64,000 bases of DNA from a virus: positions 32,001 through 96,000 of the IMG/VR virus record IMGVR_UViG_3300047494_000107; one strand, written 5' to 3'. The first letter of the stretch is position 1, and the number at the start of each line of letters is the position of its first letter. Both the position numbers and the translations under genes were made by a program. The notes under the pieces were generated by a model that was given only the letters and a program-made list of their open reading frames with translations, was not told where the DNA came from and did no database searches. Below, piece by piece: positions 37,509 to 41,798 of this stretch.

Positions 37509-37541
37509 CAAAAGGACCGCCCGGTTTCCCGAGCGGTCCTT
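37509..37541. terminator. Intrinsic terminator between convergent operons
   Basis: AAGGACCGC..GCGGTCCTT stem; short U-tract on minus strand. Confidence 0.7.
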
Positions 37542-37564: not shown

Positions 37565-37822
37565 TCACCAATGGGTCAGCGGTGCCCGCACGGTGACTGC
37601 CCAAGGCGTGGTGGCTGGGGCGGTTTGCAGAACAATCCCGACGCTCACTTTCGTTACCCAGACACCCTTATACTGAATGACAACACCAGGAGAGACCTTC
37701 GAAAATTGTGCTCCTGTGTTTTGCAGCACAACACCAGGAGAGACCTTCGAAATCTCCGCCTGCTGTGCCATTGCGATGCTCGGAAGAAACAACATCAGCC
37801 CAGCGACAATCCAACGGATCAC
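37565..37822 (-). CDS. Small exported repeat protein
   Basis: Signal peptide ..AMA|Q; three xxKVSxGxVxQ repeats; 25-bp direct repeat at 37680/37728. Confidence 0.7.
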   Translation of the reverse strand: MIRWIVAGLMLFLPSIAMAQQAEISKVSPGVVLQNTGAQFSKVSPGVVIQYKGVWVTKVSVGIVLQTAPATTPWAVTVRAPLTHW

Positions 37823-38925
37823 GGGATCGTCTCCACCCCAAAGTCAACGCCGGCAGCGGTCAAATCAGACGGCAACCATGCAACGCCAGTGTTGGGATTT
37901 GTCGCCTGAATATAGCTGCTGAAGTTCGAGAAGCTATTCGTCGGAGCATAGCTGCTGCTGAGATAGTCCGTGCCGCCGACCCGCGTATCGAACTCGAAGT
38001 GCTGAGGACCAGACGAACCAACCAATGCCTGAGCGCTCATCGCTACGCCAAGCACGCTATAACTGCCGCTGGGTAGCGTGTTGTAGATGGCGCAGTTGTG
38101 CAGAACGTTGTTCGATGCGCTGTAGGCGTAGTTAGCTTGGTTCAGCGTCGAAGCATTCCAAATCGACGAGCAGACGTTCGTGCCACTCAAGCCGGTGCTA
38201 TTGCCATTTGCGTTTGTGTAGGCCGTGAAGACGCCCATGGCGCGCGTGTCGGTGGTGGCGACGATGACTTCGGACCAGAGACCTAAGTTAGTTTGGGGCA
38301 CTGCGAACTCGACCTGGTTAAGCGTCGTAGCTCCATCGCCATTCGTGACGTTACCAGTATAGTCACAGACTTGTGTGCTGTTACTATAAAGAGTAACTTC
38401 CCCGCTTGATCCGTAGTTCACATACATGTCGAATTGATCAAGCGACGCAGGGATCGCGGATGAACATGTGACAAGGTCGGTAAATGTGCCCCCTGATGTG
38501 CGGGATGATATCTTTACCTGGCCATTCGTTCCGGTGCCTCGCACAATTAATGTCGGGTTTCCGCTGCTATCGTTAATTCGCAACATCTGATAGTTGGACG
38601 CCGTCGTGGTTATGCAAGTATTTGAGTTATCGGTGCAATACTGCCCGTGAATCCAAATAGTAGAATTTCCTGCGAAAGTAGACGTTTGAAACCTGTTCAC
38701 AGGCGGATCAGAGGCGGAAGTATCGGAAACGTCATACGAGCCACGGGACCAGGCTGAGCGGTAAAGCCCAGATGGCGCAGTAAATCCACACGTGCCACCA
38801 CTCAAGCACGTAAAGTCCGAGTCCTCTTTACCCACGAACAATAGCGTCGCTTGCGCCGAGTGCGCTGCACCCAGCATCAGCCCAATCAGCACCAATAGCG
38901 GGAAAAGCCGACGAATGAAGTTCAT
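37819..38925 (-). CDS. Exported beta-sandwich/lectin-like protein
   Basis: Signal peptide ..AQA|T; paired Cys; C-terminal NPNTG.AW...L...FG. Confidence 0.75.
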   Translation of the reverse strand: MNFIRRLFPLLVLIGLMLGAAHSAQATLLFVGKEDSDFTCLSGGTCGFTAPSGLYRSAWSRGSYDVSDTSASDPPVNRFQTSTFAGNSTIWIHGQYCTDNSNTCITTTASNYQMLRINDSSGNPTLIVRGTGTNGQVKISSRTSGGTFTDLVTCSSAIPASLDQFDMYVNYGSSGEVTLYSNSTQVCDYTGNVTNGDGATTLNQVEFAVPQTNLGLWSEVIVATTDTRAMGVFTAYTNANGNSTGLSGTNVCSSIWNASTLNQANYAYSASNNVLHNCAIYNTLPSGSYSVLGVAMSAQALVGSSGPQHFEFDTRVGGTDYLSSSYAPTNSFSNFSSYIQATNPNTGVAWLPSDLTAAGVDFGVETIP

Positions 38926-39530
38926 GAACCATCTCCAATAAAGACATAAGCTGCGGCTGAGCCGTTATTCGATATGACCGTCGCACCAATGATTGATTTC
39001 GACCCATAGGTGCCCGTGAAGCTGTGTGGCGAAGTCAGCGTGGCCCCCGAGCCGGCCGACAGAGTGACCTTGGCGGTGCCGCCCTGGATCATCCCGATGT
39101 TACACCCGGCCGCTAGGCTGTTAGGTAATGTGACGGTTACAGCGCTGTTGGAGCTGAAGTTGATCAAGGTGCCGCAGTCAGAGGCTGCTAGCGTATACGT
39201 GGTGCCGCTCTGCGTCGAAACTGCGCCGTAGACGGCACCGAACGTCTGTGGACCCGTCCAAGTGTTGGTGCCCGCGAGAGAGACGCCGCCCGTGCTGCAT
39301 GTCATAGTTCCACTCGAAATTGTACACCCCGACAGATTAAGAGGCGTTGCTGCTCCAGCTCCGCCTGTGCCTCCATATATTTGAGACGTTGTGCCGGACG
39401 GAATAGCCGACGTAATCGCGCTGGAAAGTTGCCCCGATGTCACCCCCGGCGGCGGGATAGGTCCGCCAGCAAACGCCTGCGAAACCCCGAGCAGTGCGCA
39501 CAGCCAAAGTGCGACAAATTTTACCATCAC
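38922..39530 (-). CDS. Exported protein with tail-fibre-type C-terminal domain
   Basis: Signal peptide ..AFA|G; NTWTG.QTF; TQSGTTYTLAASD.G..AVTVTLP..IQGG...VT. Confidence 0.75.
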   Translation of the reverse strand: MMVKFVALWLCALLGVSQAFAGGPIPPPGVTSGQLSSAITSAIPSGTTSQIYGGTGGAGAATPLNLSGCTISSGTMTCSTGGVSLAGTNTWTGPQTFGAVYGAVSTQSGTTYTLAASDCGTLINFSSNSAVTVTLPNSLAAGCNIGMIQGGTAKVTLSAGSGATLTSPHSFTGTYGSKSIIGATVISNNGSAAAYVFIGDGS

Positions 39531-40135
39531 TGGAACGCCTCGCCGGCCAGCGTCGCGGACGCTGAGACCATGATGCAGTTAATCGCCGCATTCCCAACCG
39601 TGGGGTAATCCCACTCATAGCCGCCGCCCGGCTGTATGCGGACGCCGTAATTGAGAACAGCCGACGCACCGTCAGAGCGGCACCAAGCGTCGTTGCCGCT
39701 GCCCGCAGTTGCGAGGCTGTAAATGACGACGCGCGCCCGCGTGCCGGTCGAGGCGGCCACGACGGGGGTTGCGGACGTCGAAGCGGAGACCGAAAAAGCG
39801 GACGTGGTCGCCGCCACAGGGGGTGCCGCAGCGGTGATATGGGACGGAACACCCCCGTCAGAATTGAGCGTATAAGGCCAAAAGTTGCCGGTTGGCGGGG
39901 TCACAAACCAAGGCGAAGAAGACGACCCCTGAGCCCCTTGGGTGACCGTACCGCCCCCTCCGCCCCCGTTTAGGTTGTAGACCACAGACGCCCTGGAGCA
40001 GTCCGACAGCAAGACCTGGTTGAGTGGTACCCCGGCAGGACAACCTGTCACCGCATTGCCGGGCGTCTGAGCACGGGCGCCTGTGGCGCCCCAGACCCCG
40101 CAAATGAGAAACACTAAAGCAAGCAGAATCCGCAT
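39527..40135 (-). CDS. Exported hypothetical protein
   Basis: GGAGG RBS; signal peptide ..ARA|Q; four Cys in mature part. Confidence 0.75.
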   Translation of the reverse strand: MRILLALVFLICGVWGATGARAQTPGNAVTGCPAGVPLNQVLLSDCSRASVVYNLNGGGGGGTVTQGAQGSSSSPWFVTPPTGNFWPYTLNSDGGVPSHITAAAPPVAATTSAFSVSASTSATPVVAASTGTRARVVIYSLATAGSGNDAWCRSDGASAVLNYGVRIQPGGGYEWDYPTVGNAAINCIMVSASATLAGEAFQ

Positions 40136-40265
40136 GACCGCCTCCAAGGAGGCAGCATTTTAAGACGTCTCAGTCTTTAGACGGCAGGGTTGCTGTCTGC
40201 CTTCAGGTCGACAAGTATGTTCTTATAGTCACAAGGTAGCAACACGGCGTTAAGCGGTCTAAAAT

Positions 40266-40449
40266 CCTTTCAACTCGTACTCCGCCTATTGAGCTTTTTG
40301 ACCGCCTAGAGGTGCAAAAAGTTGAAAGGATTGGCGTATATACGCGGCTGTCGTCGCATTACAAAACCGCTGCACTACCGCTGTGCTAACCCGGCGGACT
40401 GTTGTTTTCGATATATTTTATGGCGGCTCTAACCGCTAATTTCAACTCG
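40266..40449. repeat. Candidate integrase arm-type sites flanking attP core
   Basis: TTTCAACT at ~40268 and ~40440, inverted copy AGTTGAAA at ~40320. Confidence 0.5.
40359..40395 (-). tRNA. 5' half of tRNA-Thr(UGU), attP core (not a full tRNA)
   Basis: GCCGGGT-TA-GCAC-AGCGGTA-GTGC-A-GCGGT-TTTGTAA; tRNA structure stops at the end of the anticodon loop; 46 bp downstream of integrase stop. Confidence 0.85.
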
Positions 40450-41539
40450 CTTTCTGGGCCACTTTCGACTCATGCCGCTTGCCCGACCTCAGTTTACGCA
40501 TCGCACCCTCAGCAAACGTCCGGTCAGGTCTGACGTATACCGACAGCACATTTCGGCTTTTGTGGCCGGTTATCGCCCTGATTTGGTCCTCCGAACACCC
40601 TGCAGCCCCGAGCGCCGTGGCCAGAGTGCGCCGCAAATCACGAAACTGCAGATCGTCCGGCAGCCCTGCCAGCGCTCTTAGGCCGGCAAATCGGTGTTGA
40701 AAGTCACTTTCAGCGTAGGGTCGCCCCGTGGCCTCGGAGACGACGATAGGGCCATTTTCGACTCGCGGGGTTGTCTCCAGCAGCCGGCGGAGTTCAGGGA
40801 GCGCCGGCACCCAGACTGCGGCGCCCGTCTTCTCCTGGCGCAGCAAGACAGCCTTCCCGTCATACGCCGCCCAGGACAGCTTGCGGAGGTCGGCCGGGCG
40901 TTGGCCCAGGCACCAGCCCAGCATCACGGCCAAGGCCATGCTTGGGCGGCCAGCTTCAACGGCCTTGGCGCAGAAAACGTCGCGCTCATTGATCGTCCAG
41001 ACCCGTGAGCGACTATCCGGCACGGACACCATCATCTTGAGCGCCGGGTTCTTGTCAATCCAACCCTCGTCGACCCCAAAACTCAACAGGCGGCGCAGAG
41101 CGGCAATCGCGTTACGGGCGGCGGATTCACCGCGATCGGCTTTCAGACCCCGGTACCAGTTCTTAACCATTTTACGCTCAAGCAGGGCTACAGAAGATTC
41201 ACCCGCAGCGTCTAGCGCCGGCTTGATGTTGTAGAGGTAGTCGCGCTGAGTTCGCGGAGCCATGTCGACCATGAACTCCTCGTCGGCCTGGAACAGGTCG
41301 TGAAGAGCCAGTAGGCTATCCGACCGGTAAGATGGACCTGTCTTGGGTTCTTGCTTACGGCGCCACTGATCCAATTCCGCGTTCAGGCGCTCAGCTGCGA
41401 CGATGGCCTGTATGCGGTCGTCGGGGAGACGACGAGGGATGAACCCGGCGGCGAGGAGTTTTGGAGTCGGTTGCCAATACCAGAGCGTACGGCCTTTAAG
41501 GGGCCGCTTTACCAGATACCGGACGCCGATGTCCCGCAC
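40442..41539 (-). CDS. int: Tyrosine integrase
   Basis: GQRPADL (R), QEKTG (K), FRDLRRT (HxxR variant), TGH, VY. Confidence 0.93.
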   Translation of the reverse strand: MRDIGVRYLVKRPLKGRTLWYWQPTPKLLAAGFIPRRLPDDRIQAIVAAERLNAELDQWRRKQEPKTGPSYRSDSLLALHDLFQADEEFMVDMAPRTQRDYLYNIKPALDAAGESSVALLERKMVKNWYRGLKADRGESAARNAIAALRRLLSFGVDEGWIDKNPALKMMVSVPDSRSRVWTINERDVFCAKAVEAGRPSMALAVMLGWCLGQRPADLRKLSWAAYDGKAVLLRQEKTGAAVWVPALPELRRLLETTPRVENGPIVVSEATGRPYAESDFQHRFAGLRALAGLPDDLQFRDLRRTLATALGAAGCSEDQIRAITGHKSRNVLSVYVRPDRTFAEGAMRKLRSGKRHESKVAQKAS

Positions 41540-41798
41540 TCATCCGCTCCATCAAGATCGCTCGCTCATCTTCGCGCGGGTCGCCAGCGCCGACAACCTG
41601 CCATCGCCGCCGCACCCACGCCTCGACGGCCTCGACGGCGTAGAGCCCATAGAACGGGTCGGGCTTGGGGAAGTCAGGGGGCAGGTTGGCCTGCACCCAT
41701 AGGACGGGGCGGCGAAACACCCGATCGGCCACCTCGCTGATCGTCATCGTCAGCGGTGTCCAATCGTACCGCTTGTGCCGTGGAGCGCGGGTCATCAC
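41496..41798 (-). CDS. Putative excisionase/HTH protein
   Basis: Immediately upstream of int; MTISEVA..FPKPD..Y..AVEAW. Confidence 0.6.
   Translation of the reverse strand: MMTRAPRHKRYDWTPLTMTISEVADRVFRRPVLWVQANLPPDFPKPDPFYGLYAVEAVEAWVRRRWQVVGAGDPREDERAILMERMSAGHRRPVSGKAAP

Follow-up and report, generated by a model that had tools for sequence, protein, structure and literature searches.

The region between positions 40263 and 40447 of the window is, with a probability of about 0.9, the attachment site (attP) of a temperate 110-kb phage that has reversed polarity and targets the anticodon loop of a tRNA-Thr(UGU) gene. By the window we denote the whole stretch of DNA analysed here, 64,000 nucleotides corresponding to bases 32001–96000 of an IMG/VR virus record of 110,533 bp. 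The record is rated complete and possesses direct terminal repeats (our own check yields an exact terminal repeat of 127 bp), and we therefore regard it as the free form of the phage. The features of the site and its surroundings are listed in Table 1.

The core of the site is the 5' half of a tRNA-Thr gene. The 37-mer occurs only once in the window as well as in the whole 110,533-bp record, and is not matched in shuffled sequences. Read as a tRNA, it consists of a 7-bp acceptor strand, the dinucleotide TA, a D arm (GCAC/AGCGGTA/GTGC), a single A, the anticodon-stem strand GCGGT, and the loop TTTGTAA with the anticodon TGT. The half starts 46 nt past the TGA stop of the integrase gene (40444–40442) and is located on the same strand. 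The bases that follow the loop in the window (TGCGACG...) are not complementary to the anticodon stem, and nothing of the 3' half of the tRNA is found in attP, which holds bases 1–37 only. ARAGORN detects no complete tRNA in either the window or the full genome; likewise, the region has no match in Rfam, as is expected because only half a tRNA is present. A preliminary description of this DNA had already reported a tRNA-Thr(UGU) 5' half that ends at the anticodon loop on the minus strand downstream of the integrase gene, and had pointed to an upstream TTGAAA-19-TAAAAT element, flanking AGTTGAAA/TTTCAACT repeats and four co-oriented ORFs with signal-peptide-like N-termini. All of these are recovered here.

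Table 1. Features of the attachment site and neighbouring genes, in coordinates of the window.
Feature	Position	Strand	Remarks
tRNA-Thr(UGU) 5' half, 37 nt	40359..40395	-	exact copy of the tRNA from its first base through the end of the anticodon loop; block common to attB
Anticodon loop TTTGTAA	40359..40365	-	putative 7-bp overlap (crossover) region; identity to intact tRNA stops here in 6/6 free forms
-10-like TAAAAT	40415..40420	-	spaced 19 nt from the first tRNA base; candidate promoter element contributed by the phage
P-arm repeat AGTTGAAA	40440..40447	-	overlaps the integrase stop codon; includes the -35-like TTGAAA
P' arm	40263..40332	-	arm motif as a perfect inverted pair of 13 nt with a gap of 44 nt
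Tyrosine integrase, 365 aa	40442..41539	-	Pfam PF00589 (Phage_integrase) 1.8e-13; phrog_1 integrase 1.9e-32
100-aa ORF	41496..41798	-	overlaps the integrase start; no Pfam or PHROG family
Four overlapping ORFs	37565..40135	-	signal-peptide-like N-termini; co-oriented with the tRNA half
Intrinsic terminator closing the cassette	37510..37539	-	14-bp hairpin and UUUU, -27.5 kcal/mol, z = -6.8

The use of such a half as a recombination site is evident from related integrases. Scans of genomes, metagenomes and viral sequences with the integrase or its alignment yielded 109 loci, all of which were searched with tblastn and ARAGORN. In 16 of these, an integrase (37–67% identical to that of the window) is situated 53–114 nt upstream of an intact tRNA-Thr(tgt) gene on the same strand; two further loci have a tRNA-Leu(caa) at the same position. 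The first 37 bases of the 16 intact tRNA-Thr genes are those of the window half or differ from it in a single base. The proposal of the preliminary description that attP carries the 5' part of tRNA-Thr(UGU) is thus borne out by the layout of integrated relatives. [quoted passage not shown] Five other free forms (L012, L015, L016, L085 and L086) consist of the integrase gene, a 5' half cut at the same base as in the window, and unrelated sequence thereafter. A second complete free genome of the same layout is G043 (42.3 kb, with terminal repeats); the source record of L085 has terminal repeats and is rated complete. The pairing of base 6, which lies in the phage half, with base 67, which lies in the host half, is G:C for the window type and for every integrated locus. 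In L012 and L086 base 6 is an A, matching the A:T pair of Methylobacterium and Sphingomonas genes.

The attB, attL and attR sites of the window phage itself are not found among the loci and records gathered, and the phage would presumably integrate in the manner of its relatives. No locus covers both ends of an integrated relative (flanks of at most 10 kb), and a second copy of the 5' half, as expected for the displaced host fragment, does not occur in any locus or record within flanks of the same size. A search of IMG/VR for the pattern of an attL-type junction matches free forms and one unrelated intact tRNA only, and the sequences of up to 10 kb upstream of ten integrated integrases contain no repeats of the tRNA 5' part other than chance 7- to 10-mers. 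Several of the integrated copies may be remnants; locus L002, for one, has a frameshift in its integrase gene, and only about 700 bp upstream of it host genes begin.

Identity with the intact tRNAs of the 16 loci extends through the final loop base and no further. The loop is bounded by an imperfect dyad that reads CAGCGGT on its left and NNCGCTG on its right in the relatives; the right-hand arm is weaker in the window (CGACG) than in the relatives (CGCTG). By analogy with att sites of the anticodon-loop class, we infer that the crossover takes place within the 7-bp loop, the exact cleavage positions being putative.

Arm-type repeats are found on both sides of the half. The P' arm of the window consists of AATCCTTTCAACT at 40332–40320 and AGTTGAAAGGATT at 40275–40263 on the minus strand. 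In an alignment of six free forms the tRNA half is invariant, a copy of the arm motif in reverse orientation follows about 33 nt further on, and a forward copy comes 45–55 nt after that; between the integrase stop and the half there are 1–3 forward copies (one in the window, 2–3 in the relatives). The layout of the P' arm, at the same distance and with lineage-specific motifs, is present in L015, L016, L085, L086 and L012. The motif itself is AGTTGAAA (GTTGAAA) in the window, GTTGAAC in L085 and L016, and GTTGGAT in L015, L012 and L086, with unchanged positions. Variation of the motif by integrase lineage at fixed positions is as expected of sites for the arm-binding domain of the integrase, and the repeats on both sides would be candidate binding sites of this protein. 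As RNA, the P' inverted repeat folds into a long and stable hairpin that is followed by UUUU. A role of this hairpin as a conserved terminator was considered and rejected: the U-run is present in only about 4 of the 6 free forms, and the loop comprises about 44 nt.

The degenerate right dyad arm and the single arm repeat on the integrase side, where relatives have two or three, would also be compatible with the half being a relic, that is, what remains of an imprecise excision long ago, or an attP that has decayed, in a phage that integrates elsewhere or never. We consider this very improbable. All 37 bases are intact amid flanks that cannot be aligned among relatives whose integrases are only ~50–65% identical, the two 13-nt repeats of the P' arm match perfectly, the integrase gene and the ORF upstream of it are open and conserved, and six independent free forms stop at the same base.

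The integrase has 195 homologues at E<=1e-10. Residues R214, K237, R303, H326 and Y335 are invariant in the integrase alignment (A1), and their R, K, R, H, Y spacing is lambda-like. We also observe a family consensus LQFRDLRRT at residues ~297–305 (window 40630–40650), whose Phe sits at the position of the first catalytic His of lambda Int (H308). The integrase gene is preceded by the 100-aa ORF and a gene for a family-A DNA polymerase. Homologues of the 100-aa ORF immediately precede the integrase gene in 17 related loci (34–53% identity), with which the rest of the phage is not shared; the ORF probably encodes an excisionase or a directionality factor.

A maximum-likelihood tree of 51 integrases places all rows of the 5' type in one clade (SH-aLRT 99, 15 rows). 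The sole other row of this clade is L004, the closest relative of the window integrase (62% identity), for which no tRNA half is found in the 390 nt available downstream (L004:2267–2654). In that locus another ORF seemingly follows directly after the integrase gene. In 13 more distant loci, whose integrases are 35–48% identical, the tRNA is located on the opposite strand after the integrase, corresponding to the usual 3' side. The tRNAs concerned are Thr-cgt, Thr-tgt, Met, Arg or Lys, and the integrases belong, where full-length, to neighbouring clades of the tree. With one clade of the 5' type and relatives on the 3' side, reversed polarity is a heritable trait of a single integrase clade. 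Examples of relatives with classical polarity are L018 with tRNA-Thr(tgt), L019 and L023 with tRNA-Thr(cgt), L021 with Met, L022 with Arg, and L025, L038 and L092 with Lys. Their integrases are 36–48% identical to that of the window, their hosts are of alphaproteobacterial type (named homologues are from Azospirillum and Pararhodospirillum), and their arm repeats, which are of the AGTTGGAA type and of the same kind as in the window, lie between the integrase stop and the tRNA.

The arrangement suggests the following course of integration. The tyrosine integrase would bind the AGTTGAAA-type arm repeats on both sides as well as the imperfect dyad around the 7-nt loop, and would recombine attP with the anticodon-loop segment of the host tRNA-Thr(UGU) gene. 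As attP brings tRNA bases 1–37 and not the 3' part, the junction next to the integrase gene would hold an intact tRNA, of which the 5' half and everything upstream is phage DNA and the 3' half is host DNA. The far junction would retain the host promoter, the displaced host 5' half and the P' arm. The probable excisionase would be supplied by the small ORF upstream of the integrase.

A consequence of this layout concerns the expression of the restored tRNA. In integrated relatives all sequence 5' of the tRNA is element DNA, and hence, by deduction, the element must supply expression of the gene. This agrees with the preliminary description in so far as the restored tRNA, held there to depend on a phage promoter behind int, has nothing but phage DNA upstream. 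In the window, TTGAAA (40445–40440) and TAAAAT are separated by a spacer of 19 nt on the minus strand. The pair is absent from the output of a consensus promoter scan, which takes spacers of 16–18 nt only. The sequence (T/G)AAAAT is located exactly 19 nt before the tRNA start in four lineages (the window, L010, L002 and L008), the flanks of which have diverged. In most other relatives a module CTAAG(T/C)C-N-TTGAAAT abuts the tRNA; it resembles the GCTAG that precedes the native tRNA genes of Sphingomonas and Methylobacterium by a few bases. Both upstream modules are candidate promoters of the restored tRNA. Alternatively, the tRNA may be expressed by read-through from the integrase gene, as there is no terminator between the two.

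The -10-like element at a conserved distance of 19 nt in four lineages is also what would be seen if the half were transcribed in the free phage from TTGAAA-19-TAAAAT and acted as an RNA, for instance as a tRNA-half decoy or a regulator. We give next to no credence to this role: the element is equally explained as a promoter for the restored tRNA, most relatives possess the different upstream module (CTAAGTC...TTGAAAT), and the conserved layout of arm repeats together with the integrated relatives shows use as a recombination site.

On its other side, attP adjoins the cassette of four overlapping ORFs. Two of the encoded proteins resemble phage proteins whose role is structural or unknown: the third ORF has a match to phrog_6368 (1.3e-21), and the second a weak one to PHROGs of virion proteins. 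The nearest Atlas clusters to the cassette proteins are viral hypothetical proteins. The GC content is 0.52 at 38–39 kb as compared to ~0.60 elsewhere. The terminator that closes the cassette (-27.5 kcal/mol) was missed by the consensus scan. In these respects the cassette resembles morons and lysogenic-conversion cassettes beside attP: it is likewise compositionally distinct, closed by a terminator, composed of genes for putatively exported proteins, and adjoins attP. It differs from them in that it is known here from its sequence, with two of the four proteins having relatives among phage proteins.

The preliminary description had proposed an integration-activated cargo switch for this neighbourhood, which could stabilise the prophage if the tRNA is single-copy. 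In the full form of this model the reversal is a selected switch. In lysogens, and only there, transcription from the strong, growth-rate-regulated host tRNA-Thr promoter at the far junction would pass through the displaced 5' half and P' arm and enter the cassette, while the sole tRNA-Thr(UGU) would come to depend on a phage promoter whose -35 element overlaps an arm site, and this dependence would stabilise the prophage. The cassette would then be turned on by integration and its expression tied to the growth rate of the host. The geometry is suitable, as the half, the P' arm and the operon are located on one strand with ~220 nt between, and the consensus scan detects no canonical terminator or sigma-70-type promoter in 40136–40358; the moron-like character of the cassette (lower GC, a strong terminator of its own, not common to relatives) is also in keeping with cargo of this kind. 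We nevertheless regard the switch as unlikely. Of 6 free forms, only 4 (the window, L012, L016 and L112) have a co-oriented gene next to attP; in L085 and L086 this gene is convergent, a split as expected by chance. A homologue of the cassette is not found in any related locus fetched. Furthermore, the P' hairpin with its UUUU could stop or process such a transcript, and weak candidates for promoters of the cassette itself can be seen by eye, e.g. TATAAG near 40226. The proposed stabilisation does not follow from the layout, because precise site-specific excision rebuilds the host tRNA gene together with its promoter, as it does in the usual layout, and no addiction would arise.

Returning to the reading of the region as an attP of reversed polarity, we note that this kind of site is rare but already described. 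According to the account in PMC6563490, recombination at the 5' side of tRNA genes is considerably rarer than at the 3' side, and cases are represented there by Zhao and Williams (2002) and four archaeal studies. The statement of the preliminary description that integrases targeting tRNA genes usually take the 3' part agrees with this account, whereas the implied novelty of the layout does not. As far as they are summarised there, the elements with reversed polarity of Zhao and Williams (2002) resemble the window in that the element holds the 5' portion of the tRNA and that its integrase gene flanks the restored tRNA gene at the 5' end; an element of this layout must therefore supply the upstream region. 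They differ from the case described here, which concerns the free genome of a tailed phage of 110 kb, a tRNA-Thr(UGU) target, and a whole integrase clade that has the trait. The anticodon-loop class of att sites (Williams 2002, as outlined in PMC1635311) shares with the window a block of identity bounded by the 7-nt loop, flanking dyad symmetry that derives from the anticodon stem, and arm-type repeats to either side. [quoted passage not shown]

The present case contributes a phage of 110 kb in its free form, a tRNA-Thr(UGU) target, and a coherent clade of reversed polarity whose sisters are classical, providing a well-documented example from a bacterial phage as well as a whole alphaproteobacterial integrase clade for a rare class of att sites. 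Since the classical sister clades have the same arm repeats, the group constitutes a natural system for studying how an integrase lineage flips the polarity of its target. The clade could further reveal how promoters of essential tRNA genes are usurped by mobile elements. In practical terms, programs for the detection of islands and prophages that seek only 3' tRNA fragments will misplace the ends of reversed elements.

Several lines of similarity concern the host. The most similar tRNA genes (88–93%) are located on plasmid or chromid records of Sphingomonas, Methylobacterium and Bosea, and the 5' half of the unoccupied Methylobacterium gene is exactly that of L012 and L086. The phosphoglycerate mutase beside the tRNA in L009 is 85–89% identical to proteins named as originating from Acetobacteraceae MAGs, and the named homologues of the integrase are from Azospirillum and Pararhodospirillum. 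Taken together, the homologues of the tRNA, the phosphoglycerate mutase and the integrase indicate that the host is probably an alphaproteobacterium.

A number of individual loci have features of their own. In L002 (L002:9700–12954, MAG contig CAWGFA010000007.1) one tRNA-Thr is used from both sides: the frameshifted integrase of the window clade is located upstream of the gene, a second integrase (DUF6538 and Phage_integrase) starts ~90 nt past its 3' end, and another tRNA-Thr(tgt) is found 6 kb away. The MAG, labelled Acidimicrobiia, is the sole genome match, and none of 40 relatives of this genome has a homologue of the integrase; the contig is perhaps misbinned, or else the island occurs sporadically. 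Locus L077 (L077:1900–1990) contains a normal 5' half and loop, followed by a non-tRNA stretch that ends in CCCGGCACCA, the acceptor 3' end, and is a hybrid or decayed tRNA-Thr beside an integrase of the window's clade. Many metagenome contigs of the integrated layout (L005, L009, L011, L043 and L049) start only 0–400 nt upstream of the pair of small ORF and integrase; perhaps assemblies break there because the interior of the element varies between strains. ParA-like partition genes are found a few kb upstream of the integrase in integrated relatives (L006:1064–1714 and L008:2017–2757), and part of the clade may consist of plasmid-like integrative elements and not of phages. Finally, L112 (IMGVR_UViG_3300045941_000223; L112:5260–6783) has a same-strand 5' half of tRNA-Thr(UGU), cut at the anticodon loop, after a tyrosine integrase without significant similarity to that of the window, and AGTGGCTACAAAAGTGGCTACAGTC repeats on both sides of the half. 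The reversed layout at tRNA-Thr(UGU) may have arisen in a second integrase lineage as well.
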